Shown piece by piece: positions 341-50,130 of a DNA stretch of 64,000 nucleotides. Below the pieces are notes generated by a model. The model saw nothing but the letters and a program-made list of their open reading frames with translations, was not told the origin of the DNA and did no database searches. The stretch's first letter is position 1; each line of letters begins with the position of its first letter. Source of the DNA: an uncultured virus (IMG/VR IMGVR_UViG_3300020049_001894) (Duplodnaviria > Heunggongvirae > Uroviricota > Caudoviricetes); IMG/VR virus record IMGVR_UViG_3300020049_001894. One strand, written 5' to 3'. The translations under genes were made by a program, and so were the position numbers.

Positions 341-681
341 CAACTAAAACAACTGGTGCTGAGTGGTCTGCTTTCTACGCTGACAAAAGCGCATGGCCGG
401 ATCATGCATGGCATGAAGAGGAGACAGTGACTGTAGATGGCGCTGAGGTCGATAACCTAGAGTTTGACCCGGCGAATCTGCCGCCGAACGCAAGGGTCAC
501 AGTCTCGGGGGGCGTAGTATTTTTGAATGAGGAATCGACCAACGGCCCGACGCTAGAGGCGTATTTCAAAAGCTGGCGCAAGAAACAAAACACAGTCTTT
601 ATGACGGTGGAAGTGCGCAGGGCCGATGCCGAAAAAGTGCAGGCGGCTATCACTGCCGCTGGTGGCAAGTGGACGGCATGA
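337..681 (+). CDS. Hypothetical phage protein (114 aa)
   Basis: GGAGA RBS then ATG at 337, overlapping the upstream TGA. Confidence 0.75.
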   Translation: MTTKTTGAEWSAFYADKSAWPDHAWHEEETVTVDGAEVDNLEFDPANLPPNARVTVSGGVVFLNEESTNGPTLEAYFKSWRKKQNTVFMTVEVRRADAEKVQAAITAAGGKWTA

Positions 682-691
682 CCTGTTAGGG
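680..691 (-). repeat. Remnant right half of an attC-like site (GACCT-GTTAGGG)
   Basis: Same GACCTGTTA end as sites 57119 and 58269; no left arm. Confidence 0.5.
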
Positions 692-711
692 TGCAACACA
701 AAGAGGTAAAA

Positions 712-945
712 ATGGCAAAAGGAATTAAGCAGCGCATCAAGGCTGCACTCAAGAATGTGGATAGAGAAATTACCGGGAACGCATCGCTCAGCAGATATGG
801 CGCAGCCATGTCAGGAGAAGGATACGCGGGCGGGTACAGACAGGCGCTTTACGATGTGCTGGTGCTACTTGATGGACATTGGGAGCCGGACACACGCGGA
901 TACTGGGAGAAAAAGTCATCTAACGCAAAGCTGCCCAGCGCGTAG
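712..945 (+). CDS. Cassette-borne hypothetical protein
   Basis: GAGG RBS; C-terminus SNAKLPSA encoded inside attC-like site 918. Confidence 0.75.
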   Translation: MAKGIKQRIKAALKNVDREITGNASLSRYGAAMSGEGYAGGYRQALYDVLVLLDGHWEPDTRGYWEKKSSNAKLPSA

Positions 946-971
946 CGTCTGCGCCGAGCGTTGAGTTAAAC
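918..971 (-). repeat. attC-like site (54 bp)
   Basis: ATCTAAC GCAAA GCTGCCCAGCGC GTA GCG T CTGCGCC G AGC GTTGA GTTAAAC. Confidence 0.8.
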
Positions 972-988
972 AGAACTTGGAGAAGACT

Positions 989-1240
989 ATGAGGCTAGTA
1001 AAACTTGAAATTGAGCTTGTGCAGTACGGCGAGGATAAGGGTCAATACAAGGGCGTGGCCCGATTCGACGGAAGCACAGGGAACATCGCGCTAAAACTGA
1101 ACCAGCACCACTGTGAGCAGATGTTTTTGACATGCGCCGAAGGCATCGTTGATGTTGCCAAAGCTGCGGCCAGGATGTTTGTGGCCGAGGCGATGGGCAC
1201 GATTGAAGAAGTGAAGACGAAGCAGCTGAGTACGGTTTAA
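989..1240 (+). CDS. Cassette-borne hypothetical protein
   Basis: GGAGA RBS; stop is the TAA of the GTTTAAC box. Confidence 0.8.
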   Translation: MRLVKLEIELVQYGEDKGQYKGVARFDGSTGNIALKLNQHHCEQMFLTCAEGIVDVAKAAARMFVAEAMGTIEEVKTKQLSTV

Positions 1241-1286
1241 CGCCGAATTGTGCGGCGGTACGTCCGCCACGAATGCCGTGTTAAAC
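1235..1286 (-). repeat. attC-like site (52 bp)
   Basis: GTTTAAC GCCGA ATTGTGCGGCGG TACG T CCGCCAC G AAT GCCGT GTTAAAC. Confidence 0.85.
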
Positions 1287-1310
1287 GGCAAAACTTAACC
1301 GGAGAAAGCG

Positions 1311-1670
1311 ATGTTGAAGGGCTGCGAATACATAGACCTGTTGTTTGACGAACCAAAAGACCACCCCTATTACGTGACGGGGCATGTGCAAAAAGACGAA
1401 GCGCAGCACGTACTGGACAGCAACGAGTGCGAGATGAACATTAAGTCCATAAAGCACCGGTACGGGCGACTTGTGCGCGTTGGCCCTGACCACCCCGATG
1501 CAATAGACGGGCTTGAGTCCATTTTCCGCGTGATCGACACGCCACGGCGCAGCTACTACGCGGTGACAGAGTGCGAGCCTCTTTTGCCATTTAACGCAGA
1601 GTCGAACGGTGCGAAGCATCCGACTCGGACGCCCGGTTATCTGGCTGGAACACAAACAGGAGAAGGATGA
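1311..1670 (+). CDS. Cassette-borne hypothetical protein
   Basis: GGAGA RBS; reads through the whole attC-like site 1589. Confidence 0.75.
   Translation: MLKGCEYIDLLFDEPKDHPYYVTGHVQKDEAQHVLDSNECEMNIKSIKHRYGRLVRVGPDHPDAIDGLESIFRVIDTPRRSYYAVTECEPLLPFNAESNGAKHPTRTPGYLAGTQTGEG
1589..1642 (-). repeat. attC-like site (54 bp)
   Basis: ATTTAAC GCAGA GTCGAACGG TGC GAA GCA T CCGACTC G GAC GCCCG GTTATCT. Confidence 0.85.
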
Positions 1671-1912
1671 TGAAAGCACCAATCACGTCTGCGCAAGCCA
1701 TGTCGCACCCAACTGTTGTTGAAACAATAAACGCGCTCGGAGCGATTGCAGATGAGCAGCGGGAGCATAAAGAGCGGCTTCGGGGCCTGCTGTTTGAAGT
1801 TGCTGCGAATTACACGCGGGATGATGACTTGCCGAACGACTTGCTACCTCGAATTGACGCGGCGCTGGCCCTGCCATTTAACGCAATATATCCCGCAAAA
1901 CCTGCAAATTAA
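1667..1912 (+). CDS. Cassette-borne hypothetical protein
   Basis: AGGAG RBS; C-terminus FNAIYPAKPAN encoded in the attI-like site. Confidence 0.75.
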   Translation: MMKAPITSAQAMSHPTVVETINALGAIADEQREHKERLRGLLFEVAANYTRDDDLPNDLLPRIDAALALPFNAIYPAKPAN

Positions 1913-2004
1913 TGTGGCAGCTTGCGACATTAAAACAGCCTCTAGCCCTCGTAAACACTAGCTTTGTTGCTCATCTAAAAATAGCATGAAAGGATGCGGA
2001 AATG
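1876..2004 (-). promoter_or_regulatory. attI-like site plus conserved ~125 bp block, copy 1 (copy 2 at 59452-59580)
   Basis: Minus strand GGGATAT-ATTGC-GTTAAAT (box, 5 nt, GTTRRRY) with no hairpin partner; colinear and gap-free with copy 2. Confidence 0.6.
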
Positions 2005-2289
2005 ACACCCAGACAACGAGAAATCCTTGAGACCATGCGCTACGGTCCGACGACTGCGATGGAGGTTGCCCTTGCTACCGGCAGAGAGCACCGGACAGTT
2101 GGCAACCTCTTTACGCAGGTCCACAGGGCTGGATGGACTGAACGCTGCGAGCGCAAGAACGGCAACCTGTACGAGTACGTCTACGAGTTGTCAGATGCTG
2201 GGCGCAAAGAAATCGGGCCGGGTCCAGATGGGAACAATCCGTTCCTGTGGCGAACGTACAAGCAACCTGTGGCTATGGGGGCACTTTGA
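2002..2289 (+). CDS. Winged helix-turn-helix DNA-binding protein; paralog of 60566..60862
   Basis: MTPRQREILETM...TAMEVALATG HTH-like pattern, wing YEYVYELSDAG. Confidence 0.7.
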   Translation: MTPRQREILETMRYGPTTAMEVALATGREHRTVGNLFTQVHRAGWTERCERKNGNLYEYVYELSDAGRKEIGPGPDGNNPFLWRTYKQPVAMGAL

Positions 2290-2435
2290 GCTGGCTACTT
2301 GCTGTTTTTGCAAAGCCATTTGTCGCCACAGGGGTTACCTACGCTCTGAGCCGTGTTCGAGCAGTCGTGTCAAAACGATTACCCTCGTCACGACTAAAAC
2401 GACTTCTGCTATTGTCCGTTTTCAAGCGCAAGTAG
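2286..2435 (+). CDS. Small hydrophobic/basic protein
   Basis: TTG start overlapping the upstream TGA; SWLLAVFAKPFVATGVTYAL...RLKRLLL. Confidence 0.5.
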   Translation: MSWLLAVFAKPFVATGVTYALSRVRAVVSKRLPSSRLKRLLLLSVFKRK

Positions 2436-4175
2436 GCCAGGAAGCATCATGTATTTTTCGGCTTCCGCCGCATATCTATTCACAGCTGGGCGAGCATTTG
2501 CCAACCGCATCAAATCGGCCCCGCGCCCAGCTGGGTCAGTCATTGCTTCGGCCAGCGCTCCAAGAACCTTGGGTTCTGCAGACTTCATCACAAACTCGTA
2601 GGGTCGAGTCAGATAGCTAGCCAATGCCCCTTGCGCGAACGACCCAGGCGCTCCAAGCGGCCCCAGCGTGCGTTGTAGCAGGTTCTGACCAAGCATGTTC
2701 TGCATAGTAGGCGACCCGACGGCACGTCCGGCCATTTGTGCATTTTCCTTGCGCGCTAAATCGCGAGCGACGCTTTCAAGCACATTCAAATCCCCGCGCG
2801 GCATGACATCAGACAACCCTCTATCTTGACCGGTTGCTTTTTTGATAGATTCGAGGGCCTTGGACAACTCTGCCATGTAGGTTGCGCCCATCTCCTTACC
2901 ACTGCCCCACTCGGCATTCTTGTAGAGTCTACTTTGCAAATCCGCTGCAACGTCCGAGGCATTAACTTGGCGCGACATTGCTGCGTAGTTGTCATTTGCT
3001 GCTTTGTAAGCCGGAGCGAGCTGCTCCATTGTGTTCATTAAGTCGGCTTTGGTCTGCACTAATGCTCGCAACTTGTCTTTGCCGATGCTGCTAGCCCCAC
3101 TTGTCGCAGCGCTTATCTGATTGTCCAACCCTTTCTTAAGCCAGTCCAACCCCTCGATTGACCCAAAGTTAGTCAATGCAATGTCTTGCTCAGCCGCTAG
3201 ATCAGTCGCAACCTGCTTTGCGTCCTGAATTGACGGACGGCGCAAAAGACTTTCAATCTGCGGCTGCAACGCTTTGGCCATGTCGGGGTCAACCCCCTGC
3301 GCAACCGCCTTAGCGTAGTCTTCATTTGCAAACACACGCCGACCTTCACGGACAGCAGTGCGATGCTCAGGAGTTCCAGCAACCTCAGCGATGGCGGCGC
3401 GGCGTGCGTCACCTTGCTGGCGGTATGCGCGAGCTATTGGCCCCTGCGCTTCCGGATTGTTGTAGAGAGTGCGTTCGAGTTGAGCTAGTCCGGGGTCGTC
3501 TGCGATTTGACCGATTGTGGGGTTAGACCCTTTTACCAGCGCCCGACCCTTAGCCATATTCTGTGCAGCTTGCACGGGATCGGTTGCACTCGCGGCAAAC
3601 AGCTCTGCTGCAATTTGCCGTTGGCCCTTTTCAGTCAAAGGGCGCACTAGCCCGGTGCCCATCTGATAAGTCGCCCCTGCAAGCCGTCCGAGTGCGAGCC
3701 CTGCAGGGCCTGCCGCGCCACCCATCCCTGTATTTGTTAACGTCTCGCTGGTGCTGGCGCTGGGTTGCATCAATCCGGTTCCCGCCCCGATTAGCGCCGC
3801 GCCTTTCATCGTATTGGCGCCCGGCACAAACGCCAATGGTAACGTGGTGACAACATTACCCGCAAATTCACCAATCTTGGCAGGGGTGTGTTTCATCAAG
3901 TCTGCGTCCAACCTGCGCGACTCTGCGACATCTGTCCTGTCAACCAGCCCCACCATTTGCCCAGCGCCGCGTGCTGTGTCTGAAAACGCCTTTCCCACCC
4001 CCGCCAATACCTTTTGCGTTGTAGACATGCCTTCAGTCGGGTCTGGACGCGCAGCGGTCGCCATCAGTCTGCGCACGTCATACCCATTAGCCGACAATTT
4101 AGCCAACAATTCCGCACGCGTAGTGTCGTCCGGCACACCCTCAAGCACCGTCCCATCAGGCAAAGTCACATTCAT
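2409..4175 (-). CDS. Internal virion / DNA ejection protein
   Basis: Ala/Gly-rich helical protein starting MNVTLPDG, last gene of the virion operon. Confidence 0.6.
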   Translation of the reverse strand: MNVTLPDGTVLEGVPDDTTRAELLAKLSANGYDVRRLMATAARPDPTEGMSTTQKVLAGVGKAFSDTARGAGQMVGLVDRTDVAESRRLDADLMKHTPAKIGEFAGNVVTTLPLAFVPGANTMKGAALIGAGTGLMQPSASTSETLTNTGMGGAAGPAGLALGRLAGATYQMGTGLVRPLTEKGQRQIAAELFAASATDPVQAAQNMAKGRALVKGSNPTIGQIADDPGLAQLERTLYNNPEAQGPIARAYRQQGDARRAAIAEVAGTPEHRTAVREGRRVFANEDYAKAVAQGVDPDMAKALQPQIESLLRRPSIQDAKQVATDLAAEQDIALTNFGSIEGLDWLKKGLDNQISAATSGASSIGKDKLRALVQTKADLMNTMEQLAPAYKAANDNYAAMSRQVNASDVAADLQSRLYKNAEWGSGKEMGATYMAELSKALESIKKATGQDRGLSDVMPRGDLNVLESVARDLARKENAQMAGRAVGSPTMQNMLGQNLLQRTLGPLGAPGSFAQGALASYLTRPYEFVMKSAEPKVLGALAEAMTDPAGRGADLMRLANARPAVNRYAAEAEKYMMLPGLLALENGQ

Positions 4176-5512
4176 TTCAAGTCCCCCCATGAAACAGACT
4201 TAGTGCCACTTTGCGGCTGAGGCTCTACCCCTTGCGTCAAATACGAGCCGTCACGTATTGCTTGCGCTTTCTTAGCGGCGTACCCTGCACGGGTTTGTGC
4301 TGCTGCAATGGCTCGCTCTATGATTTGCCTGCGCTGAGCGGGGGTCTTGTCTGCTGAGGCTTGAATGTCCATTAATATCTTGCGCTCGCCTTCCGTCGGT
4401 GCCGCGCCGAATGTGGACTTGAGGCTTTCCAGGGCTTGCCCCGTCATGATGTTGTCGAGGTTGATTGTGGCGTCTGCCTCCGGGCTTTGCCCTGGCAAGT
4501 TGCTGCGCAGAACAGCTCGGGGTTTTGCACCGTAACCGCTGTATGCCACGTCGTTCAACTCTAACGCTTTGCCGAGCAACCCGGTCACGACCTTGCCTGA
4601 CTGCACTGCGTCGTCGCTTTCCAACAGCTCTTTTTGCATTGCTGGGGGCATTGACGTTTGCAGAGTCTTTGTTTTTACAGGCGCATTGTCAGCCCCTAGG
4701 ACGGGGCGAGCCCTGCCGGACTTGTCCACAATAAGCTGCGTGCCGTCAGCGCCTACAATGTAGTGCGGTGCAGGCTCAGGTCTGTTTTCACGCGCTGACA
4801 TTGCCATCGCCTCTCGGCTAGCCCGGTCCGCAGCTGCTCGTTCATTCATCGCCGCCTGATTCTGCGCAGCCAAGTCCATGCGCCCCTGCTGTGCTTGCTG
4901 TGCCGCGAGTCTCTGCGCAATAAGTGCTTGCTGCTGTGCTTCCATACGGTAAGCTGCTTGTTCTTCGCGGGTCTGCTGGGCAGCAATCTGCTGCATGATG
5001 AGCGGCGTGTACTGAGCGCGCAGCTTCTGCTGGTTGTCCTTTTCCTGCATCATGGCACTGGCCACGTTATGCATGGTTTCACCAAACGAACCTGTGCGAG
5101 TCGGCATTGTGAGGGCCGCAGCCAGTGCCAAGTACCTACGGCTGGAGTCGTCTTTGGGAACGTGTCGCTGGAGCATCTCTTCAAAATCCAACGGGCGCGG
5201 GCGCGTAGGCGCTTCGCGCCCCATTACTGCGCTCAAGGCACCCGACTTCGGCTCCGCCGCTGGGCGCTCCGGCATAACGTCGGCCACGGTCAGTGGCCCA
5301 ACTGTGCCGTTGTACGCAGGCATGTCATCTTTGAACACAGTCCCTTGTACGGCACGCGGAATGCCTTCACCCGGCGACATGCTAAAGGAAAACGGGGTCG
5401 CCCCGTTGTCAGCAGATCCATTGGTCATCATGTCTTGATTGATGAGGTCTTGGATGTGCTGTGGCAGCATCTTAAACTGCGATGAGGTTTCGACACTTTT
5501 TGCCATGTTCAT
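4172..5512 (-). CDS. Internal virion / DNA ejection protein
   Basis: Gln/Ala-rich coiled coil; ends SWGDLK; position in operon. Confidence 0.6.
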   Translation of the reverse strand: MNMAKSVETSSQFKMLPQHIQDLINQDMMTNGSADNGATPFSFSMSPGEGIPRAVQGTVFKDDMPAYNGTVGPLTVADVMPERPAAEPKSGALSAVMGREAPTRPRPLDFEEMLQRHVPKDDSSRRYLALAAALTMPTRTGSFGETMHNVASAMMQEKDNQQKLRAQYTPLIMQQIAAQQTREEQAAYRMEAQQQALIAQRLAAQQAQQGRMDLAAQNQAAMNERAAADRASREAMAMSARENRPEPAPHYIVGADGTQLIVDKSGRARPVLGADNAPVKTKTLQTSMPPAMQKELLESDDAVQSGKVVTGLLGKALELNDVAYSGYGAKPRAVLRSNLPGQSPEADATINLDNIMTGQALESLKSTFGAAPTEGERKILMDIQASADKTPAQRRQIIERAIAAAQTRAGYAAKKAQAIRDGSYLTQGVEPQPQSGTKSVSWGDLK

Positions 5513-6630
5513 TGCCCCAGTAAGGACGCGCCAGTGAGTAGCCCCGCGCCCAGTTGTTGCAAGCCGTTTGCCTGAACCGCCCCTGCGCCGCTAGACGCCG
5601 TGGCTGTGGTCCCTGGTAGGCGAATACCGTTAATGATGCTCGCAGCGTTACCCAATTGCTTCCATGGATCATCTCGCGCGGCCTGCGCATTGGCGTAAGC
5701 TGCGGCAAGCGCGGCCTGTTGATGCTCCTGCTGGAGCTTGCCGATATTGAGCAGCGATTGTGCGTCGGAGTTTGCCAGCTCTTGGTGCGTCTTGGACAAC
5801 GCGCCGAGCGAGTCAATTCCGGTGCGCATAGTGTTGGCAGCAGTGGTTGCGCCTTGTAGCGCAGTGTTTGCTTGCAATTGACCCTGCTGCTGGACACGAT
5901 TCGCATCACCAGACAGGGCGCTATGCATGAGCTGCCCACCTTGCAACGCCGCATTGCTTTGGAGCTGCTGTTGCTGTTGGGAGCGGTTGGCATCTTGCCC
6001 AAAAATCTGTGCACTCGCGTTGTAACCAGCTTGCAATGCGCCGGACTGCTGTCCCGTAATGTCATTGGCTGCGTTCACCCCGGCACGGCTCAGAATGTCT
6101 GCGTTACGCGTGGACCCAAATTGACCGGAGCCAATCATGCTAGAGTTCACCCCTGGCATGATTGTGTTTTCCCAATTACGCTGCCCCAACCGTGCGATGT
6201 TGTCTACCACCTGCTGGGTGTAGGGGTTCATGTACTTGTTGGCGTTGGCAGTCCACTCCTGAGACTGCCCAGCCATTGCGTCCTGCGCGCCTTGCGCCCA
6301 CGGCTGTACGGACGATGCGGTTTCCATGGCGGGGCCACCAACCGCCCCCTGCGCATAGTCTACGAACTTTGCCGCAGTTGGGGCAATCTGATTAGCCAAC
6401 CCCGTTGCCTGATTGATGTTCTCTTTCCACAGGCCCTGATTCTTGCGGACATTCTCAAACGCGCTAGTTTGATCCGAGTTGAACCCTGCAACGCTCTGCG
6501 CAGGCAGGGGTTGCTGGTTGTTGGTCTGCGCGATGTTCATCGCCTGCGTGCCCAGGTTCTGGGTGTAGGCTTGGTACCATGCAGGCAGGTCTGTTGTGGT
6601 TACGCTCAGATTTGCAGTGGGGGTTGCCAT
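5509..6630 (-). CDS. Internal virion / DNA pilot-like protein
   Basis: LPAWY, YMNPY, GQFGSTR motifs, Gln-rich, hydrophobic C-terminus. Confidence 0.6.
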   Translation of the reverse strand: MATPTANLSVTTTDLPAWYQAYTQNLGTQAMNIAQTNNQQPLPAQSVAGFNSDQTSAFENVRKNQGLWKENINQATGLANQIAPTAAKFVDYAQGAVGGPAMETASSVQPWAQGAQDAMAGQSQEWTANANKYMNPYTQQVVDNIARLGQRNWENTIMPGVNSSMIGSGQFGSTRNADILSRAGVNAANDITGQQSGALQAGYNASAQIFGQDANRSQQQQQLQSNAALQGGQLMHSALSGDANRVQQQGQLQANTALQGATTAANTMRTGIDSLGALSKTHQELANSDAQSLLNIGKLQQEHQQAALAAAYANAQAARDDPWKQLGNAASIINGIRLPGTTATASSGAGAVQANGLQQLGAGLLTGASLLGQ

Positions 6631-6633
6631 AGC

Positions 6634-7503
6634 TTAGGCTCCTTGAATGTAGGACAGCGGGCCTTGTGCTGGCGGTGGAATCTCGCCCAGCGGGGCCGAA
6701 CGCTTCTGGGCGCGAAGTTGCTCGCGCAGTTCATCGAGTTTGGCAATTCCAGCTTCTGTATTGCCATCGCCCAGCGCAGACACAGACTCGGCGTCAAAGA
6801 CGTATTCACCTGGGGACACATTGATATTGATGAGGTCAGATTGACCGCCATCTGCACCGCGTACTCCGCCAGCAAAAGCAGATGCCAGTGCGCCCTCCAT
6901 ATCACCTTCAATCTCGCCGCCATCAGCGTAGTTCTTTCCAGGGGTGACGGGCGAAGGCATGTCTGCTGCGTAGATGCGTTGCAAGTCAGTGCCTGTTTGC
7001 ATGGGCCGACGCCCAAAAGCCAGTTCGGCCTCGGTCCACATGGGCGCGGTGTTGCTCTTAGGCATCATGGCCATGAGTTCTTCCATGGTGGCTTGCCGCT
7101 GTGGGGTCTGCGTCATTGCTCCGACCGTGCCGATTGCGGTGCCTGCAAGTCCGAGTATCTTTTCCCAGTCGTAATCACCGTTGGGTTTTTTGACGCCTAG
7201 GGCGCTGGCTATTTGTGCCAGCATTGACGGGCCTTCAATATCAGACCCAGGAGATATATTACCGAGTCCATATTCACTAGGATTTTGCGCCATGCCAATA
7301 AGGCGATTGGTTTCCGCATCCGATTGGTTTTCGTCGGATTGGAGTCCTGATATGCCAGGATAATGAGCACCTTCATGCGAGTAATTCTCGTCATCTGCGC
7401 CCACCGCCTCGATACTACCCCCCTCGTTGGAGTAGTCCTCGTCAAAGTACCCGTCGACCGGGTTGCCCTCATCGTCCCATTCAGTTACTACATAGTCTGC
7501 CAT
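6634..7503 (-). CDS. Putative virion protein
   Basis: Acidic N-terminus; YADGG and DGGQSD..SPGEYVFDA..VSALGDG motifs. Confidence 0.55.
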   Translation of the reverse strand: MADYVVTEWDDEGNPVDGYFDEDYSNEGGSIEAVGADDENYSHEGAHYPGISGLQSDENQSDAETNRLIGMAQNPSEYGLGNISPGSDIEGPSMLAQIASALGVKKPNGDYDWEKILGLAGTAIGTVGAMTQTPQRQATMEELMAMMPKSNTAPMWTEAELAFGRRPMQTGTDLQRIYAADMPSPVTPGKNYADGGEIEGDMEGALASAFAGGVRGADGGQSDLININVSPGEYVFDAESVSALGDGNTEAGIAKLDELREQLRAQKRSAPLGEIPPPAQGPLSYIQGA

Positions 7504-7508
7504 AATTG

Positions 7509-7751
7509 TTACCTCACTGAGCCGATGAATTGATTGGCCCACTCCTGCCAGGTGCTGAACCCTTCTGCGGACGGGATGTTCATTTCGACAAGTTCAGGCA
7601 CATAGAACAGCGCGCACACCCAAGTCTTCCAACTGTCACTATTATAAGGGGCGCTCACTCCAAACTGGGCCAATTGTTCGGCGACAAGCGCGCCCCATTG
7701 GGTGAAGTCAAGCCCCTCTACCTGCGGCAAGAACGCTGCGTTTTTAATCAC
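7509..7751 (-). CDS. Small Trp-rich tail-region protein
   Basis: ORF coupled to the upstream tail gene. Confidence 0.6.
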   Translation of the reverse strand: MIKNAAFLPQVEGLDFTQWGALVAEQLAQFGVSAPYNSDSWKTWVCALFYVPELVEMNIPSAEGFSTWQEWANQFIGSVR

Positions 7752-9712
7752 TTGGTTGACCTCTCGTCGCCCGGTTCAATGCTCACGTGCATTTGACCGA
7801 GTTCGTAAAACCCGCCCGGGGTGTTGCTGATGAATTTGAGCTTCATGATGCGTGCTTGCTCCCCCATGTTTTGAAACGAGTCGCCAGGTTGCAGCGTGTA
7901 GGTGTCTAGCACTTCATCGGAGTCCTGCGCGAATGATCGCCCAATGACATCAACCGACATCTCGCCCACCTGATTCATATCGGGCTCTAGGCGCAAAATA
8001 CGGGTCATTGAATCAAGCATCTTGGGGGCATCGTCAAATGGGGCACCCACAGCAAAGCCAAAGTTCTGCGATGTGAACGAGCTAACGATTGGCAGCGCGT
8101 CCTGCCCCACAACTTTGTCCCAGCCATATTCATGCTGGTACTGCGTTACAAGAGTTTGGTCCTCTGGTGTGGACTGTACCGTAGCCGTGGCGCTGGATGT
8201 TGGGGTGGTCAGCACGTCAGTGCTTTGGAATGTGCCGGTCACGTCTGTGACGTTAAGCGATGTTGTCAGCACCCTGGACACTGTGCCCGTAGCGCCAGAC
8301 ACAGACCCAGTGACGGGGTTATTCGCAGCAAACGCAACGGTCATTGAAGTGAATGTAATGGTCGCATCAGCCGCTACACCCGTCGTATTGGTGTCTAGCG
8401 TCACAGTTGTACCCGTGTGTGACAACACTAATGAGCCGTAGACAACCCCTGTTCCCGCCGCAACCATGCCATCCACCACCCCTGTAGTCGCTGCGAAGTT
8501 GAGCACGGGCGACGCAGCTAGTGTCAGGGCGGAGGTGGCAAGCGCCACACCGGTTGTGAGCTTGATCGTGTCATCCGAGTCCTCATGCCCCACAAACACC
8601 GGGTACTTGAATACGCCCGTTGGGGCTGCTGCTGTGCGCTCTTTCACTGCGTCATACCATGTGTTTTCGCGGTAATTGAAGATGATAGCGTTGCCGCACT
8701 CAGTGTCTGTGCCGCGCGGGTAAAACCACCATATCTCGCCCCAGCGGCCAACTTTGACGCCGAACACTTTGTTTTGGTGGGCGTAGTTGAGCCCGTCAAA
8801 AAAGTAGTTGCAGTTCATCTGGTTGGGCAGTTCCTGCACGACACCGTTGTAGAACAGGAAGCGATCCGTGCCCGGCCAAAAGAATTTGCCATCATGCTCA
8901 ACCACTGCGTTTTTGGCAAGGATCGTTGACGGACTGGCCAGCAGGTCGTACTGCCACAGTCGCGTGTCATTGGTGAAGGAAACACGGATGAGGCTGTCCA
9001 GGCTCCAGAACAACCCTGAAGGCGCTTGCGAGCCGCCACGGATGGGAGCGCCGTAGACAATCTTTTGTGCCCCTATATTGTTGATTGACGCGTAGCTTGA
9101 CCCGCCAACAGTCCAGCCACTGGCAGTGCTGTAGTTGTTGGCATCACTATTGCGGATCAATCCATTGGAGCCATAGACAAACAGGAAAGGCTGTAGTACA
9201 CAAACCCCGCCCGACGTGCGGATGGGGCCAGATCCGTCAGCTACTTGCGTGAGGGGTGCGTTGCTGGTGATGTCGCCCGCGTAGACGTAGCCCTCGTCAT
9301 CATTGGCGATGTCTTCGGCATCCGGCGAGCTGGCTGCAATGATTGCCGAGTACGTACCGCCAGTGCTTGAGTACATGGACGCAAATGACCAGTTTAGCAG
9401 CGGGTTAGTGGCGAACCCGGCAGGGGTGCGATCTTCGATACTTCCTGTTGTACCGTCCAGTGCGAATTCAACTCGCTGTATTCCCCACTGGCTGAACAAG
9501 TGGGTGGAATTGACCCCGCCGCGCGAATCCAGCATGACTGCCCGTACGGGGCCATTGACTTGTTGGTTCATCGCGCGGTAGCCGCCCATTTTGCGAGGCT
9601 TGCCGCGCTGCCACCGCACCCACACGCCATCTGCGTAATACGACGAGTCTAGCTCTGTGCCATCACGCCGAACGCCGGGCTGCGACTGAAATAGGTAGAT
9701 TGGATCAGCCAT
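7748..9712 (-). CDS. Tail nozzle / packaged-DNA stabilisation protein (podovirus type)
   Basis: 654 aa beta-rich; QPGVRRDGT start; EIWWFYP and FNYRENTWY motifs. Confidence 0.65.
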   Translation of the reverse strand: MADPIYLFQSQPGVRRDGTELDSSYYADGVWVRWQRGKPRKMGGYRAMNQQVNGPVRAVMLDSRGGVNSTHLFSQWGIQRVEFALDGTTGSIEDRTPAGFATNPLLNWSFASMYSSTGGTYSAIIAASSPDAEDIANDDEGYVYAGDITSNAPLTQVADGSGPIRTSGGVCVLQPFLFVYGSNGLIRNSDANNYSTASGWTVGGSSYASINNIGAQKIVYGAPIRGGSQAPSGLFWSLDSLIRVSFTNDTRLWQYDLLASPSTILAKNAVVEHDGKFFWPGTDRFLFYNGVVQELPNQMNCNYFFDGLNYAHQNKVFGVKVGRWGEIWWFYPRGTDTECGNAIIFNYRENTWYDAVKERTAAAPTGVFKYPVFVGHEDSDDTIKLTTGVALATSALTLAASPVLNFAATTGVVDGMVAAGTGVVYGSLVLSHTGTTVTLDTNTTGVAADATITFTSMTVAFAANNPVTGSVSGATGTVSRVLTTSLNVTDVTGTFQSTDVLTTPTSSATATVQSTPEDQTLVTQYQHEYGWDKVVGQDALPIVSSFTSQNFGFAVGAPFDDAPKMLDSMTRILRLEPDMNQVGEMSVDVIGRSFAQDSDEVLDTYTLQPGDSFQNMGEQARIMKLKFISNTPGGFYELGQMHVSIEPGDERSTK

Positions 9713-9716
9713 ACGC

Positions 9717-10340
9717 CTACGGCCTCGTGAACACGGTAGTGCGATCGGCTTGCCGCTCGGAGTTCTCCTGCTTCAACCCACCAACTGACGACTGGTACAT
9801 ATCCTCCCACACTGGCTGGCGGGGCGATTTGATGTACCGGCACGCCTCAACCATGATTGCCGCGAGCAGTGCTTGCGGGGCGTTGAGTGTGAGCCAGTTG
9901 GTTTCGTTCGACTCACTCAGGGGTTGCAAACGGGCATAGTAGACCAGCTCGAAATCCAGCGCAGCAGCAGGTGTTGGACCTAGCAAGAAGTGCGTTGCGT
10001 TGTAATCTGCGTAGAACTTGGGAGTGTCTTGTAGAGACGAGTTGGGCCAGTAGTTACGCACATATTCCAAGGGGCGCAACAGCAACGGATGCCGTTCACC
10101 TGTGGCGTCGGTGAAGTAAAAAGAGATCGTTTCTTTCCAGAAGCTGGGTTTTTCCAACGCGGGGGTTGTGGGCAGGGTGCCGCTGACCACGGCTTGGAAC
10201 CCCTGTTGCTTCATCTCCGTGGCTAGACGGTTTTCCGCCAGCGCCACAAAAGTTGGAATCTGGTCTGCGAACGCAGTGTCAGTGCGTTCCGCGTATTGCG
10301 GGACCAGCGTCGCTAGTTGTGAGTATGTAAAATTCTGCAC
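9717..10340 (-). CDS. Head-tail adaptor / tail tubular protein
   Basis: IPTFVALAENR, PKFYA, LGPTP, TNWLT..AP motifs. Confidence 0.7.
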   Translation of the reverse strand: MQNFTYSQLATLVPQYAERTDTAFADQIPTFVALAENRLATEMKQQGFQAVVSGTLPTTPALEKPSFWKETISFYFTDATGERHPLLLRPLEYVRNYWPNSSLQDTPKFYADYNATHFLLGPTPAAALDFELVYYARLQPLSESNETNWLTLNAPQALLAAIMVEACRYIKSPRQPVWEDMYQSSVGGLKQENSERQADRTTVFTRP

Positions 10341-10341
10341 G

Positions 10342-11799
10342 CTAGCGACCTTGGATTGCTCGGGTCAACGCGCCGCCCTGCGCAAAGTTACGCCCCCATG
10401 ACGTAGGAGTCGGCCGGACTTCGGGCGTCGGAATCGACGCGCTGGGGTGCTTCTCATTCCCGGCAACCCCCGGTTTTATTCCTCCTGAGCCGCTTGCAAC
10501 CCAACCGTTGCTGACGTAGGGGTTCGGTTCACTGCCGCCTGTTTGCCAACCGCCTGGGCCGCGATAAACTGGTTGCGTTGTGACGTACCCGTTGTCGACT
10601 GGGTTTGGGCCGCTCCCGCCGCTGCCGCCAGATGCGTAACCGTTCTGCTTCATCCAAGCAATTTCGGAATCCGTAACGCCATTCTGCCGCATGGCGTCTA
10701 CACTGACGTTGTTCTGGTTGAACCAATCGATCTTTTCAGCAGCGCCCATGCCGCCCCAAACGGATGGGAGCGTGAGCGAGGTGCCTTGAATAACGTCACC
10801 GCCGCCAGGCTGGCTGGATCCAGCGCCAGGGTTGCGCATAGTCGGATCGTCTTTGCCGTTTATAAAGCCAGGCTGTCCAGGGCTCGTGCCTGCAGGCATA
10901 GGCTCCAATCCGCCTGTTCCCGGTGGCGTGATGGGATGCTGACTGTTCGGCACACCCCCGTATGGATTGGGAGGTGGTTGAATCTGCGGAGGCAACGCGG
11001 GCATAGCGCCTTGCACGGGCGGCTGCGCAACTTGTGTCAGAGGTCCGGTCGTGCCTGTGGGCTGCGCTTGCATCCCGTTCTGAAAATTGAACGTTGGCGC
11101 GGGGGACAGCATACGTTGTTGCTGGGCTGCGTACAAGGCATTCAGCACAGGGGTGGGGAACGAGTTTGTAGGCGGTTGCAACGGGGTCTGCGCAATGGCG
11201 GGGGTCTGTGCAATGGCGGGGTTGCCAAACACTTGCCCGGGTGTTACCACGGGCACAGTCGTCTGCGTTGGGCGGGTCCAAGGCTGGTAGGTTTCTGCGG
11301 GCTGGCGCTCAGGCGTGGGAATAGCTGCTGCGGTTCCGCCCGTCTGACCTTTAACTGTATTAAAGTCATTCAGCGCCTGCTGATAGGTTTCCACAGGCCT
11401 GCCATTGACCACGTTAACGGAGTGCATTGACCCGTCAGGCATCTTGTACTGGGTGTTCCCAGCACCGGCGGACAGAGCGGTTGTACTAGCATTCGGGCTT
11501 GACCAGTTATCAACCCCGTAGCCGCTGTCCCCTCGCCATTGGCTAGCTTCTAATTCGTGCACAAGCTGCGCGTATGCTGGGTCTCGCGGGCCTTTCGAGC
11601 CTGTGCCAACATTCGCAGCGTAGTTGATGGCATAGGGGTTCATCCCCAGATTGCCTGCAAGTCTGTTCATTTCGGTTGCCGACATATTTGGGTTGGCTGC
11701 GAAGAAGTTCTGAATCTCTGCGTTTGAAATCCAGCGATTCTCAGTTGGGGACCACACGCCTTGTGCGGTGTCGACTTGATTTACACCTGTATTTGCCAT
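10342..11799 (-). CDS. Pro/Gln/Gly-rich putative virion protein
   Basis: 485 aa ORF with RBS; ends FAQGGALT. Confidence 0.6.
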   Translation of the reverse strand: MANTGVNQVDTAQGVWSPTENRWISNAEIQNFFAANPNMSATEMNRLAGNLGMNPYAINYAANVGTGSKGPRDPAYAQLVHELEASQWRGDSGYGVDNWSSPNASTTALSAGAGNTQYKMPDGSMHSVNVVNGRPVETYQQALNDFNTVKGQTGGTAAAIPTPERQPAETYQPWTRPTQTTVPVVTPGQVFGNPAIAQTPAIAQTPLQPPTNSFPTPVLNALYAAQQQRMLSPAPTFNFQNGMQAQPTGTTGPLTQVAQPPVQGAMPALPPQIQPPPNPYGGVPNSQHPITPPGTGGLEPMPAGTSPGQPGFINGKDDPTMRNPGAGSSQPGGGDVIQGTSLTLPSVWGGMGAAEKIDWFNQNNVSVDAMRQNGVTDSEIAWMKQNGYASGGSGGSGPNPVDNGYVTTQPVYRGPGGWQTGGSEPNPYVSNGWVASGSGGIKPGVAGNEKHPSASIPTPEVRPTPTSWGRNFAQGGALTRAIQGR

Positions 11800-11816
11800 T
11801 TCGTACTCCTTGTCAA

Positions 11817-12263
11817 TCAGTCAATTTTAAGCGGTACCGGCCATGCGGCACTAAGTGTTTCGGCGTCTAAGGCGTGACGGTCAGCTTTTTCCGCCATGCT
11901 TCGGCCAGCTTCCTCCACTGTTCCGAGTAGCTCTCCGATGGCACCGATTCGCTCAGTGCAGGCCGCGTGGGAGACTGCGGCGTCTCGCATGGCTGCTGCG
12001 GCTGCGTCGTGCAAGCTGATAGCAGCAGAGCGAGCACCAGTAGCAGCCATCCGCAGGCCGCGAGCGCGAACTTCAGCTTTGTTCTGCGCTTCAATGACCC
12101 GATCCGCGTTGCGGAGAGCCCCCTTGGCGGCAAGGCGTTCGTTTTCAAGCTGCTGTTCTGCATGTTCCGCTTTCTCCGCGCCGTAGCGCCAGTCTTGCAC
12201 TTTCCAAGCGCCCGTAGCTGCTACGGTTGCTGCTATCAATCCTGTAGCCACGTAGGTGTACAT
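11817..12263 (-). CDS. Rz-like inner-membrane spanin
   Basis: N-terminal TM segment (MYTYVATGLIAATVAATGAWKVQDWR) plus coiled coil, directly after the endolysin. Confidence 0.75.
   Translation of the reverse strand: MYTYVATGLIAATVAATGAWKVQDWRYGAEKAEHAEQQLENERLAAKGALRNADRVIEAQNKAEVRARGLRMAATGARSAAISLHDAAAAAMRDAAVSHAACTERIGAIGELLGTVEEAGRSMAEKADRHALDAETLSAAWPVPLKID
11867..12163 (-). CDS. Rz1-like outer-membrane lipoprotein spanin embedded in Rz (start uncertain)
   Basis: Lipobox LLLSAC followed by a Pro-rich segment, in a different frame inside Rz. Confidence 0.7.
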   Translation of the reverse strand: MQNSSLKTNALPPRGLSATRIGSLKRRTKLKFALAACGWLLLVLALLLSACTTQPQQPCETPQSPTRPALSESVPSESYSEQWRKLAEAWRKKLTVTP

Positions 12264-12973
12264 CACGCCCACCCGCCCCGGCGCTGGCTGATACGCTGCC
12301 ACACCATGTAGCCACACAGTCCGACCACGCACAGCAGCAAGACAGGCACAAGCCAGTCTCCCAATGCCTGGGTGCTGTACTTCACGTCGGCGACGGTCCG
12401 GGCTGTCTCGGACACGGTGGCCACCGCAGCAGTGCCGCCCGCGACAACCCCCGCCCGATTGATGGGGCTTGCGACCATCGAGGTTTCTGCGTCCACGGTC
12501 TGCGGCATCTCTGGCAAAACCGGGTCGCTCACATCGTCGGGTACAGGCGTGAGGTACAGCGCGGCCTCTTCGGCGCGGCGACGGGTCAGGCCGGTGTACA
12601 CCTTGCCCCCGCTCTTGTTCCACAGCGCGAAGGCACGCGCAGCCGCCTGGTGGTCGCCAGCGTTGTGGCAACGTAGCACGGTGGACTTTTTGAACCCGCC
12701 TATGCCGATGTTGAAACACAGGAGGACCATCGCGTCAAACTCGTTCTGGTTCGGCGGGCTGGTGCAGGCTGCGAGTACCGCAGACTCGTAGGGCACGAGG
12801 ATGCGCAGCAACCTGCGGTCGGCCTCTTCGCGTGTGATCGTGTCGCCCATCCGCACGCCCTCGGTGAAGCCGTAACCGATGGTCGGCACGTCGCCAGGCA
12901 CCGGGATGTAAGCGACTGCGCTGAATCCTTCAAGGCGTTTCAAAATCGTCTTGCCGTTGGTGGATAGTTTCAT
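12263..12973 (-). CDS. Endolysin, GH24 lysozyme with hydrophobic C-terminal extension
   Basis: EG-x7-VPGDVPTIGYG catalytic region, FNIG, GLTRRRAEE. Confidence 0.9.
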   Translation of the reverse strand: MKLSTNGKTILKRLEGFSAVAYIPVPGDVPTIGYGFTEGVRMGDTITREEADRRLLRILVPYESAVLAACTSPPNQNEFDAMVLLCFNIGIGGFKKSTVLRCHNAGDHQAAARAFALWNKSGGKVYTGLTRRRAEEAALYLTPVPDDVSDPVLPEMPQTVDAETSMVASPINRAGVVAGGTAAVATVSETARTVADVKYSTQALGDWLVPVLLLCVVGLCGYMVWQRISQRRGGWA

Positions 12974-13071
12974 TCTTCGCCCTCTCGGTCACACATTACC
13001 ACTGCAATAATCGCCCCGGCAGCCGCCACGCCAGCCATTGCAAAGCCAATCAGGATCAATGCTTCGTTCAC
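12970..13071 (-). CDS. 33-aa single-TM peptide in the lysis cassette
   Basis: Own translation: MNEALILIGFAMAGVAAAGAIIAVVMCDREGEE; overlaps both neighbours by 4 nt. Confidence 0.55.
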   Translation of the reverse strand: MNEALILIGFAMAGVAAAGAIIAVVMCDREGEE

Positions 13072-14150: not shown

Positions 14151-15605
14151 TTAGTAGCCCTCAGTGAATGCGAAAACTACGAAGCCGTTGCCACCAGCCC
14201 CAGCTATTGCGGTGGAACCTCCGCCTCCGCCTCCGCCTCCGCCTCCTCCGAAGCCGCCAGTGCCGGACTCACGGTAGTGGCTGCCGCCACCGCCACCGCC
14301 AAAACCGCCGTTTCCGCCTTTCCCGCGACCGGCGGATGAGGCGTCACCACTGCCGCCGCCGCCGCCGCCGAACCCACCAGCCCCTGCATTACCACCACTC
14401 CCTGCACCACCACCACCACCACCGTACCCGCCGGTGCCTGCGTTGTGTATAGAGCTGGACGCCCCGCCGCCACCGCCACCGAAGCCTCCGCCTCCGCCGT
14501 TTGAGCCAGGATTGTTATACCCCGCGCCGCCGCCGCCGCCTAGCGGCACAACACGGTTGATGTATAACAGGGCTTCTGAGTCGGCGTAAATTAACGTCGA
14601 CCCCGTACCACCAGCTTGCGCAACAACGGATGGTGTGGCTGCTGTGCCGTATTGCGCACCATTCCCGCCAAACGGGCCTCCACCAACCGGAGCCATAGCA
14701 CCCGCCGTAAGTGTTGCACTAGACTGATCTGCTGAACCGTCACTTTGTGAGCCACCGCCACTGCCCGGAATAGCAGAGCTGGCTACGTTTGCAGAAAAGC
14801 CCCCACCAGCGCCACGGTATCCTCCGCCACCTCCGCCTCCGCTGTTACTGCCGCCGCCTGTCGATGCAATGCTTCCGCCAGCGCCGTAGAAGCCTCCGCC
14901 CCCACCGCCAGCACTATTGCTAGACGTACCACTTGATGTTGCTGTACTTCCGCCAGCCGCCGCCCAGCCGCCGCCTCCCCCAGCTCCACTGTTATTTCCG
15001 TTGTTTGTGGCGCTAGTTGACCCGCCTACGCCAGCGGAAGTCACGCCGCCTCCGCCAGACCCGCCGTACGTAGTTCCAGTGCTTGTTGTTATAACAGCAC
15101 CCGCCGCGCCGCCCGACCATGTTTGTAACAGCCGAACATTGCTAGCAGCAGACACTGTACCTCCCGCAGCTCCTGTTAAAGTGCCAGTGCCCGCCCCAAC
15201 GTTCTTAGAACCCCCCGCCCCGCCCGTAATAGACACGATTGATCCGATGGACGTTGTGCCGCCCGCACTACCGTTAGTAGCCGACGCGGGCGTTGCGTTA
15301 TACACACCAGCAGCGCCGCCTGTTCCAATAGTCCCGGTCACAGTCTGCCCTGGCACCACATCTAGGATGCCTTCAGCTAACCCACCCCCACCCCCGCCAC
15401 TTGCTCCCGCGCGTGGAGTTGCTGTGCCACCGCCACCGCCGCCACCAGCCCCCGCAGCAAGGAAGTAAAGCTGATATACATTCTGTGGGACGGTGAAGCT
15501 GAACGCGCCTGCTGTCGTGAATGTGCGTGAATGCTTCCACTCAGGAGGAGCAACCCGAGTCGGTGCGCTGGGTGGCAGTGGATAACCGTATGTACCTTTG
15601 TTCAT
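14151..15605 (-). CDS. Glycine-rich tail fibre / receptor-binding protein
   Basis: Extensive GGGGG and GGFGGGGG repeats; FSFTVP start motif. Confidence 0.75.
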   Translation of the reverse strand: MNKGTYGYPLPPSAPTRVAPPEWKHSRTFTTAGAFSFTVPQNVYQLYFLAAGAGGGGGGGTATPRAGASGGGGGGLAEGILDVVPGQTVTGTIGTGGAAGVYNATPASATNGSAGGTTSIGSIVSITGGAGGSKNVGAGTGTLTGAAGGTVSAASNVRLLQTWSGGAAGAVITTSTGTTYGGSGGGGVTSAGVGGSTSATNNGNNSGAGGGGGWAAAGGSTATSSGTSSNSAGGGGGGFYGAGGSIASTGGGSNSGGGGGGGYRGAGGGFSANVASSAIPGSGGGSQSDGSADQSSATLTAGAMAPVGGGPFGGNGAQYGTAATPSVVAQAGGTGSTLIYADSEALLYINRVVPLGGGGGAGYNNPGSNGGGGGFGGGGGGASSSIHNAGTGGYGGGGGGAGSGGNAGAGGFGGGGGGSGDASSAGRGKGGNGGFGGGGGGSHYRESGTGGFGGGGGGGGGGGSTAIAGAGGNGFVVFAFTEGY

Positions 15606-36144: not shown

Positions 36145-36854
36145 AATGTAGCGCGGGCTTTGCGCTCAGCCCATCTCATTCTCTGAATCAAGCTCACTCT
36201 TTCCCGGTGCTCAGGAGAAGCCCACGCTGCTTTTGCAATGTCTGATTTTACTTTACGGGCTTCCGGTGTAGAGCACGCTGCTTTTGCTGCTTCAGACAGT
36301 CTCTGTCGTGCTTCAGGTGACGCGTATGCGGCAATCACGCCATCTGACATCTTTTTCCTCACCTCCGGTGGTTCAAGGGATAATCTAGCCGCTTCAGACA
36401 TCCTAGCAACGCGTTCGGGCGGCAGTATCTTACCCTTATTGATAGCGCTCAGCATTGCTCTGCGCTCCGGGGTCATGGAAGCTGACATCTTGGCTCGTGT
36501 TTCATCACTGGCAATATTCCCTTTGTGTGAATCGCTCATACGCTGTAAGTCTTCTTGCGTGTACACGTACCCTGATGTACCTTCACCCCCGTCTGTTTTG
36601 TTTATCAACGGGCCTAAGCCTAAGTTTTTACGACCATGATACGCAATCAAATCCATTTCCAGTTCGTGCGCGTACCATTCTTGCAATCCGGTTTGCACAA
36701 ACTCAACCGTGCGGCCATGCTTCTTAGCTACCCTGTTCCAATGAATTGATCTATCTACTCCTGTATCATAGGCTCTTTCGTCACGCCCTTTACCGACGTA
36801 AAAGATTTCGCCAGTGGTAGCTTTTCTGTGCAGATAGACGTAGAAGTCTGCCAT
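36141..36854 (-). CDS. GIY-YIG-like homing endonuclease with NUMOD3-like repeats
   Basis: FYVYLH..FYVGKG..RA, N.TDGGEG, ETRAKMS repeats. Confidence 0.8.
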   Translation of the reverse strand: MADFYVYLHRKATTGEIFYVGKGRDERAYDTGVDRSIHWNRVAKKHGRTVEFVQTGLQEWYAHELEMDLIAYHGRKNLGLGPLINKTDGGEGTSGYVYTQEDLQRMSDSHKGNIASDETRAKMSASMTPERRAMLSAINKGKILPPERVARMSEAARLSLEPPEVRKKMSDGVIAAYASPEARQRLSEAAKAACSTPEARKVKSDIAKAAWASPEHRERVSLIQRMRWAERKARATL

Positions 36855-36859
36855 TTCAA

Positions 36860-36955
36860 TCTCCATCAAAGATTCATCGTAAAGAACTGCGACATGTTTG
36901 GGTGATGAGATCCAAACGAACCTGGCCGGGTCCTGTCGCAGCTGGTTCAATTATA
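36860..36955 (-). ncRNA. c4-like antisense/leader RNA upstream of the endonuclease
   Basis: TATAAT, closing stem CTGCGACA/TGTCGCAG, two inner hairpins, loop ATCTCATCA complementary to TGATG(G)AGAT over the RBS. Confidence 0.55.
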
Positions 36956-42819: not shown

Positions 42820-42918
42820 TTGTCGCACCTCATCAGAGTGGAAGACCATCGTTAAAAGTGTGGCAGGCGATGATGAGTCGCTCTTCAGGCTGCAGACCCT
42901 AGCCACCTTTGAATTATA
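42820..42918 (-). ncRNA. c4-like antisense/leader RNA upstream of the endonuclease
   Basis: TATAAT, GTGGC/GCCAC closing stem, loop CTCATCA complementary to TGATGAG overlapping the GAGGT RBS. Confidence 0.55.
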
Positions 42919-43016
42919 GGGGGTCGCCTGCGCCGACCAGCGATTGTTTTTGCCAATCGGTAACCGGAAAATACGTTCAAAATACAATCGTGAACGCTGA
43001 AATCTCGACCTATAAT
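42913..43016. promoter_or_regulatory. Divergent promoter region with palindrome CGATTG-N7-CAATCG
   Basis: TATAAT on the minus strand (42913-42918) and plus strand (43011-43016); strand switch of the genome. Confidence 0.7.
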
Positions 43017-48150: not shown

Positions 48151-48152
48151 TC

Positions 48153-49151: not shown

Positions 49152-49227
49152 TTGGCAAATACAATCGACAGCCTGCTTTTTGTGGGCTAAAATTCAAAGC
49201 ATAACTAGATAACTATTGAGATTATTC

Positions 49228-50129: not shown

Positions 50130-50130
50130 A

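Follow-up and report, generated by a model that had tools for sequence, protein, structure and literature searches.

The window analysed here is a 64,000-nucleotide (nt) stretch of DNA from an uncultured virus of the Caudoviricetes, a wastewater phage (IMG/VR record IMGVR_UViG_3300020049_001894), and its left end holds the subject of this study, a short run of small genes separated by hairpins that is probably an integron-type cassette array (array A, positions 680–1894; plus strand, as are all window features below unless stated). It comprises four units with a single open reading frame (ORF) each, three imperfect hairpins between them, and a conserved terminus as its end. Read along the plus strand, positions 1–2289 contain in order the end of a gene we call X, a 40-amino-acid (aa) ORF, an ORF at 337–681, four small ORFs led by a ribosome-binding site (RBS), and a winged-helix-like gene. 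Every hairpin has TAACG at its start and GTTA at its close; in a word scan of 600–2000 the former occurs solely at 921, 1238, 1592, and 1879 and the latter solely at 685, 965, 1280, and 1636, with TAAC-to-TAAC spacings of 317, 354, and 287 bp. The initial annotation, made from the letters alone, had listed three attC-like hairpins, single-ORF units of these lengths, a half-site remnant to the left, and an attI-like end at 1876, and each of these lies where it was claimed.

The 114-aa product of the ORF upstream of the array (337–681) belongs to phrog_4254, of unknown function, and the 3′ end of this ORF enters the remnant (676–691, TGACCTGTTAGGG) with which cassette A1 starts. The remnant is the right half of a site only (680–691), and a 10-mer is common to it and to the sites at 57114 and 58264 (TGACCTGTTA). 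The ORF of A1 (712–945; 77 aa) matches no family, that of A2 (989–1240; 83 aa) has as its stop codon the TAA of the next site's TAAC box, that of A3 (1311–1670; 119 aa) reads through the third site, and that of A4 (1670–1912; 80 aa) crosses the last TAAC box. The three complete sites are S1 (913–976), S2 (1230–1291), and S3 (1584–1647). The terminus (1872–2001), a candidate attI-like insertion end, is made up of the last TAAC box (1879) and about 125 conserved nt up to the next ATG. Beyond it lies a small winged-helix-like gene (2002–2289), not a recombinase, whose paralogue at 60551–60862 matches HTH_5 and phrog_2440. A second array (array B) is found at 56940–59447, and a hairpin arm that the initial annotation had described as shared between sites 918 and 57389 (GCGCCGAGCGTTGAGTTAAAC) is indeed common to both arrays, with 85% identity over 62 nt (917–978 vs. 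57388–57449).

Traced by hand and starting where the R box ends, the 3′ arms of S1–S3 each consist of a 7-nt R″ box, a 5-nt unpaired spacer, and a 3-bp L box, followed inward by an unpaired G16, three pairs, an unpaired base at position 20, three pairs, an unpaired T24, and a variable tip. The spacers and L boxes are GCAAA/GTTGA and GCT/AGC in S1 (R box TAAC/GTTA; unpaired G16, C20, and T24; tip CGC-GTA-GCG), GCCGA/GCCGT and ATT/AAT in S2 (G16, C20, T24), and GCAGA/GCCCG and GTC/GAC in S3 (G16, A20, T24). In the excerpts of Nivina et al. (2016; PMC5027507) available to us, canonical attC sites have an R box with AAC, an unpaired central spacer, and, in VCR2 and attCoxa2, extrahelical G16, T20/A20, and T24; the layout of S1–S3 is the same, with G16, C20/A20, and T24 here. 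The same excerpts place the extrahelical bases of the recombinogenic bottom strand on the arm opposite the AAC triplet. When a phage site is read on the ORF-sense strand, its 5′ box contains the AAC and its 3′ arm the unpaired bases, which makes that strand the equivalent of the bottom strand. The features that define attC are all present (an R box closed by AAC and GTT, spacers of 5 + 5 nt, a 3-bp L box, extrahelical bases, and variable tips), and TAAC and GTTA bound all three sites of array A as well as all 11 window sites, which range from 58 to 97 nt in length. Judged by geometry and family, S1–S3 are attC sites, and their recombination by an integrase is predicted.

Folding of single sequences gave no proof of structure (z from 0.5 to −2.8 across the sites examined), and relatives of the sites were therefore sought. 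A first, loose site pattern returned 60 loci, which proved to be chance matches, none with a hit to the model described next; a tighter one returned 75 viral loci, well above the few expected by chance. From these searches a covariance model (R1) was built on 45 aligned sites, 40 of them distinct sites from other contigs and five from the window, none from array A. With filters off, R1 finds 11 matches in the window, all on the plus strand and all inside the arrays; the best match elsewhere in the 64 kb scores 10.8 bits (E 1). Structure-based scoring, the check proposed with the initial annotation, came out in favor of all three array A sites, strongly for S2 (40.8 bits, E 4e-9) and S3 (39.1 bits, E 1e-8), both outside the training set, and weakly for S1 (14.0 bits, E 0.13). 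Array B sites likewise absent from training score 40.4 (S7, 57655–57751), 40.0 (S10, 58877–58940), and 16.4 bits (S6, 57384–57447). No match at E ≤ 1e-4 occurs in two sets of other viral DNA (315 kb and 872 kb), and the pattern-selected loci (480 kb) contain 262 sites, arranged in arrays whose members, as many as 9, share one strand.

Across the 45 aligned sites a 17-pair structure has 91.7% of its cells paired, vs. 23–48% when partners are slid (47.7% at most). Changes on both sides of a pair number 73 cells vs. 24.2 after shuffling, the covariation score is 0.251 vs. 0.077 (a value reached by 0 of 500 shuffles), and two-sided changes occur in nine of the 17 stem pairs, so that the stem is kept up through compensatory changes. 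TAAC and GTTA are invariant in 45 of 45 sites, partly because the collecting pattern required both; the TAACG, GAAAT, GATTG, and GTTA columns are partly set by that pattern, but the covarying inner helices are not. RNAalifold on a MAFFT alignment of 10 window sites finds only 7 pairs because the variable tips misalign, and no Rfam family matches at gathering score.

The cassette flanks carry a signature of their own: within a unit, the first 10 nt past the opening GTTA are complementary to the last 10 nt ahead of the closing TAAC. For the 12 window units cognate flanks score 6.08 of 10, vs. 3.73 for the unit's own hairpin and 3.50 for non-cognate flanks, and none of 20,000 permutations reaches the total. 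In 97 units from 34 other arrays the cognate value is 5.89 of 10 vs. 3.56 for the own hairpin (571 vs. 336 ± 14; 0 of 20,000 permutations); 178 R1 matches were entered in this test, and 67 without an exact TAAC or GTTA at the expected offset were left out. Cognate flanks of this kind, in which the start box is complementary to the unit's own attC box, are the trace expected of circular cassettes resolved inside the R box, and they are found both in the window and in the other arrays; they do not by themselves tell which box is cut.

The same family of sites is linked to integron integrases. Among 250 ORFs of at least 200 aa from array-bearing loci (150 compared with Pfam, 100 with NCBIfam), two encode full-length integron integrases, L168:2120–3136 (TIGR02249, 465.9 bits; cut-off 265) and L215:2517–3542 (472.6 bits), both downstream of the array and co-oriented with it. 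Relatives of the L168 integrase are present in eight viral loci; four of the five records tested are above the TIGR02249 cut-off, and the fifth ends at a contig edge. The scores of the phage contigs L229/L168, L215, L235, and L236 span 466–475 bits, and in L229, L235, and L236 R1 sites lie upstream of intI on the intI strand. A gene family scan identified structural genes in each of three intI contigs: one encodes the small and large terminase subunits (large subunit E 3e-165), a head-tail joining protein, and a primase, the second a tape measure and a tail assembly protein, and the third a portal, a head morphogenesis protein, and a CII-like regulator. RusA lies directly 3′ of intI.

Among bacterial genomes the site pattern occurs in 24 contigs, mostly of Betaproteobacteria, with the genera Rhodoferax, Ramlibacter, Rhizobacter, Propionivibrio, Aromatoleum, Methyloversatilis, and Ca. 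Aalborgicola represented. Four of five candidate host genomes tested encode an IntI above the cut-off, and the phage and chromosomal IntI proteins are 53–67% identical. On the Propionivibrio (L269) and Rhodoferax antarcticus (L270) chromosomes the R1 sites precede intI and are found on its sense strand, which fixes the model strand as the bottom strand independently of the geometry. Two other chromosomal intI contigs (L271 and L272) have no R1 matches, but in both the array side falls outside the contig, past its start, and the result carries no information. Both bacterial arrays contain an IS91-family element with a Y2 transposase (L269 6222–7154 and L270 3740–4867), and L270 also has a second, shorter Xer/IntI-like recombinase fragment at 5031–5783.

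Which strand the cargo occupies was counted from an RBS plus start codon just 3′ of each site, since a longest-ORF heuristic was noisy at this G+C content (54 of 139 units ambiguous). For 173 sites in viral contigs the signal is on the model strand in 127 and on the opposite strand in 5, and for the 11 window sites in 8 and 1, respectively; in canonical-looking bacterial arrays (20 sites) the counts are 3 and 6. The ORFs of the two chromosomal arrays lie opposite the model strand, as is canonical, and two of them are supported by homology (DUF4145 and NucS_C), whereas every homology-supported phage cargo gene checked is on the model strand: Lar-like, DHH phosphoesterase, N6/N4 and C5 methyltransferases, Mom, and RNA ligase. 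In phage cassettes the order is attC and then the gene, with cargo inverted relative to bacterial integrons and on the bottom-strand side, not on the attC top strand read from the cassette promoter Pc. This corrects an earlier reading in that each hairpin belongs to the ORF downstream of it and not to the one upstream. What is new here is the inverted cargo, together with an intI that is downstream and co-oriented in those phages that have one; a limited full-text literature search found no description of either arrangement. In two long sites, S7 and the first site of L229 (3163–3259), the start codon of the cargo lies inside the variable tip; in S7 it is that of the Lar-like gene (start 57690). 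A second small hairpin (GCCGTG...CACGGC) follows the GTTA box immediately at 60266–60295 in the window and recurs behind numerous sites of unrelated contigs.

Exchange of cassettes is seen most directly between two near-identical phage contigs. L229 and L232 have flanks that are 99.8–100% identical, and between them a cassette block of 2749 nt (4–5 cassettes) in the one and of 355 nt in the other. They diverge on the left right after ...CCTGCTAACG (...CTAACG) and rejoin on the right at an AAC located 63 nt before the intI ATG. Both junctions are as expected for cutting between AA and C on the sense strand and, on this comparison of sequences, would mark a short attI-like region. The unit that stands in L232 (5583–5937) in place of the L229 cassettes is seemingly non-coding and AT-rich, with a perfect inverted repeat of about 25 bp.

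Array B has eight units and seven attC sites (57114–57176, 57384–57447, 57655–57751, 57936–57993, 58264–58326, 58877–58940, and 59126–59186), as delimited by R1 and ORF scans, and its cargo includes a Lar-like restriction-alleviation gene at 57690–57974. This stretch was recognized in 20 metagenome runs from 11 studies, mostly of wastewater, each with 19–31% of the sampled words. In the contigs of four runs, the summed depth is in the thousands over attC bins and in the tens over ORFs. Array B cassettes are linked there at the TAAC boxes in orders that differ from the window's: 57389→57661, which skips exactly one unit (two runs, two studies), 57943→58885, which skips three, and 57396→59455, with 483 foreign letters in between. 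Sides of 31 or more are present at three rearranged joins. Joints at 57963→60240/60244 were rejected as deletions and are other members of the hairpin family. The cassettes B6a and B6b also stand beside a Mu-type portal in another phage contig, L157, where B5 is replaced.

The array B terminus (59448–59577) is homologous to that of array A, with 87% column identity between 1872–2001 and 59436–59586. Three different cassettes abut this conserved terminus exactly at TAAC, namely A4 (1879), B8b (59455), and a foreign 483-nt unit on a metagenome contig. The recombinogenic strand being the ORF-sense strand, the insertion end is expected on the right, and the attI-like end of the initial annotation holds to this extent; the terminus has no adjacent intI and no likeness to the region before intI in L229. 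In a motif search, the terminus motif (S4/S12) was found outside the window only in the nearest record, G001. The annotation had also called array A a second copy of the same system as array B, which the covariance model, geometry, cognate flanks, IntI-adjoining family, and AAC-triplet exchange bear out. It had further noted that the two arrays would be neighbours if position 1 joined 59753 in a circular genome; positions 1–300 and 59753–60052 are 95% identical but not identical, and the sequence beyond them differs. The end of the window is a diverged second copy of its start (1872–2016 vs. 59448–59592, 84%; 1999–2289 vs. 60563–60862, 73%), and it continues with one cassette, a second winged-helix gene, a helix-turn-helix gene, and an 822-aa PrimPol-DUF3987 primase, not with tail genes. 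A single attC site in this copy, S13 (60204–60273), holds the position homologous to array A and is the top-scoring site of the window (69.5 bits; in the training set). Positions 59753–64000 could come from another, related phage, reflect a chimeric assembly, or be part of a larger genome. Among the metagenome contigs no single record spans 56800–60400, and some bins are uncovered in some runs, from which nothing is concluded.

On this evidence array A is probably a genuine integron-type cassette array without its own integrase, that is, a cluster of attC sites lacking an integron integrase (CALIN), at the end of a podophage's long plus-strand operon. Three attC sites within 740 nt on one strand, together with two half sites and no IntI nearby, amount to a CALIN. 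An adjacent intI, as in a complete integron, accompanies this site family in other phage contigs but not in the window or in G001, and the reading of array A as a complete integron is corrected accordingly, its phage having no integrase. Each cassette unit would consist of a C, the folded attC, an RBS, the ORF, and a closing ...RYYYAA, with the ORF-sense strand as the recombinogenic attC bottom strand. An integron integrase would bind the folded strand and cut between A and C of the 5′ TAAC box; recombination between two attC sites would excise a circular cassette, and insertion would take place at the conserved right-hand terminus. Array A is probably served in trans by an integrase from elsewhere, which may be that of a chromosomal integron in a betaproteobacterial host or of a co-infecting phage with intI. 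Read-through of phage transcription would express the cassettes, each with its own RBS.

Several observations weigh against this interpretation. No integrase of any type is found among 54 window ORFs compared with Pfam and 48 compared with PHROGs, nor an integron integrase in the near-identical and CheckV-complete G001. R1 is a purpose-built model with some conserved columns fixed by the collecting pattern; it scores S1 at a mere 14 bits and, in the scan of the window, does not detect the remnant at 680–691, a weak point. As single-stranded DNA, S1, S2, and S3 do not fold clearly better than shuffled sequences (z −1.24, −1.83, and −0.12). Array A is 99.4% identical in G001, and no turnover is seen in array A itself. 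The initial annotation had proposed a search for its cassettes in related phages, and the outcome is mixed: a 60% relative of A3 lies between two attC sites of an unrelated contig (L193 4824–5180), but relatives of A1 (distant ones), A2, and A4 are ordinary genes with no R1 hits in 38 kb, including a 70% relative of A2 in L277 that lacks attC sites, and these cargo genes therefore also occur as ordinary phage genes. The array B rearrangements come from contigs of four runs at 90% likeness rather than from raw reads, and show that rearranged forms exist, not how frequent they are; two joints fall at GTTA boxes and have short sides of 24–25. Where the window and L157 differ by a swapped block, that block begins about 28 nt past the GTTA of one site and ends at the GTTA of the next, an offset from the expected cut between TAA and C that is unexplained. 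With array A unchanged in G001, the relatives of A1, A2, and A4 siteless, S1 weak, and no integrase in the phage, array A may be an idle CALIN.

It appears unlikely that the sites descend from attC but the array has become a fixed relic in this phage, with no integrase acting on it and with hairpins kept in 5′ untranslated regions for roles as RNA (stability, processing, or translation spacing). This reading would account for the lack of intI in the window and G001, for an array A that is 99.4% identical in two strains whose tail modules of 10–17 kb are swapped, for transcribed hairpins directly before an RBS at eight of the 11 window sites, and for truncated sites at the left ends of both arrays. 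A relic is at odds with the array B cassettes found in other orders and contexts in wastewater contigs of several studies and in other phages, with extrahelical-base geometry and cognate R-box flanks that are still intact, and with the IntI of four out of five candidate hosts. More doubtful still is a primarily RNA-level or regulatory role of the hairpins, like that of T7 RNase III sites or T4 promoter-stem-loop cassettes, with units shuffled through homologous recombination of like hairpins by the phage and a convergent resemblance to attC. The phage does encode recombination genes (AAA_24, DUF669, a Cas4-like exonuclease, and a RuvC-like resolvase); within one subtype, hairpins share 85–90% identity over 40–60 nt, which suffices for recombineering-type exchange; and the boundary in the L157 comparison is off the expected cut. 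Convergence would have to produce a geometry that is exactly that of canonical attC, including bases 16, 20, and 24, in a family that is linked to true IntI, keeps its strand relation in bacteria and phages, and exchanges at AAC junctions in near-identical phages. Nor do the sites resemble regulatory elements otherwise: none matches Rfam, sigma-70-like promoters number 0 vs. 1.6 expected in 1–2400, and of the four terminator-like sites in that region none is at S1–S3, nor is there a terminator at any other site.

Least credible is that the units are small transposon-like elements with terminal inverted repeats (GTTA + n6 ... n6 + TAAC) moved by an unseen transposase. Cognate inverted repeats do flank each unit, but the same flank signature is typical of integron cassettes, and a transposon would leave the structured, covarying 40-nt spacer and the IntI linkage unexplained; no transposase is among the window ORFs scanned against Pfam and PHROGs, and no target duplications are seen. 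A CRISPR-like array was rejected for want of spacers and repeat grammar, IS200/IS605 elements or repetitive extragenic palindromes because their end structure differs, and an Xer/dif mimic because IntI was found instead.

Integrons are regarded as bacterial devices, and published phage examples are few and small. The only paper on integron parts in phages found by a full-text literature search is that of Qi, Rajabal, Ghaly, Tetu, and Gillings (2023, Front Microbiol, PMC9892861), who have already described phage CALINs; in the portions available, their screen of 10,705 cultured genomes yielded 21 phages with 17 CALINs, and five of six tested phage attC sites were recombined by IntI1. The available text of the IntegronFinder 2.0 paper mentions phages merely in passing. 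So far as those portions of Qi et al. (2023) go, common to the two sets are attC sites and cassettes in phages, virulent and temperate, that have no intI close by, as well as orphan DNA methyltransferase cargo. Their CALINs have two or more sites, and co-oriented cassettes are described there as "most typical of bacterial arrays," whereas the present arrays, with as many as 9 sites each, all belong to one attC family and occur in dozens of contigs from uncultured phages, with cargo on the bottom-strand side and, in several contigs, a full-length IntI downstream of the array. Betaproteobacterial sedentary chromosomal integrons (Propionivibrio L269 and Rhodoferax antarcticus L270) share the R1 family and the position of sites upstream of intI on its sense strand, have IntI proteins with 53–63% identity to those of the phages, and differ in having cargo opposite the model strand.

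Arbiol and colleagues are said to have described, in 2010, mobile promoter-stem-loop (PeSL) cassettes in T4-type phages. PeSLs bring along an early promoter and are mobilized through homologous recombination. They resemble the present arrays in having small accessory ORFs in a hyperplastic phage region, repeated stem-loops as bounds, and shuffled modules; the window sites differ by integron geometry and IntI linkage, with no promoter found.

In bacteria, some integron arrays carry anti-phage defence cassettes, according to the portions available of two preprints (bioRxiv 10.1101/2024.07.02.601686 and 10.1101/2024.07.02.601719). There as here, the integron platform takes part in the conflict between phage and bacterium; here it belongs to the phages and carries Lar-like, methyltransferase, and Mom-type genes. 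A broader proposal, for which our confidence and our doubt are evenly matched, is that the phages infecting Betaproteobacteria in wastewater and freshwater operate an integron of their own, a shared pool of inverted cassettes in phage operons, swapped among unrelated phages by phage- or host-encoded IntI and stocked largely with counter-defence genes (Lar-like, orphan methyltransferases, Mom, and RNA ligase). If true, this would mirror, on the side of the phage, the defence cassettes that bacterial integrons carry. Arrays in numerous unrelated phage contigs and the chromosomal integrons of bacteria are already tied together by one attC family, and some of those contigs encode a full integron integrase as well as terminase, portal, or tail genes. 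With inverted polarity, phage and bacterial cassettes can share enzyme and sites and yet form two pools, each expressed only in its own setting. The proposal offers a testable route for fast exchange of anti-restriction and other accessory genes between phages, and the sites are a new substrate set for studies of strand choice by IntI.

The genome around the arrays is podophage-like, with an SU10-type adaptor, a GP4-type fibre, small and large terminase subunits, PrimPol, a DNA polymerase, and the recombination genes named above. Its nearest record, G001 (62.4 kb, CheckV 100%), aligns at 99.4% over window positions 511–2271 and at 99.9% over 12974–56887. Between these blocks the two have different tail/injection modules (10.7 kb at window 2271–12974; 16.7 kb at G001 43917–60641), which looks like the swap of a host-range module. 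A genome related at 91% (G002) has an ordinary, hairpin-free accessory region, and R1 finds no arrays in 78 loci of the phage's relatives (872 kb, located through the Cas4-like exonuclease). Arrays of the same site family are present in unrelated phages, and the two results together fit horizontal gain. The cultured-phage database holds no close relative of the window (one irrelevant match), searches with array-flank proteins return G001 or nothing, and the DNA polymerase is <40% identical to anything among the matches listed.

Other features of the window lie away from the arrays. A thymidine-hypermodification set at 45190–49716 comprises an amino acid:DNA transferase, a 5-hmdU DNA kinase, a thymidylate-synthase-like protein, and an HD phosphohydrolase; modified T residues in attC sites, if present, might affect recognition by the integrase. 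A 92-nt stretch that is 77% identical at 36765–36856 and 42730–42821 is common to two minus-strand genes, one NUMOD3 homing-endonuclease-like (36141–36950) and the other an ORF at 42124–42987. A further minus-strand gene, at 14151–15605, is full of glycine-rich 9-nt repeats and weakly matches Gly_rich_2.

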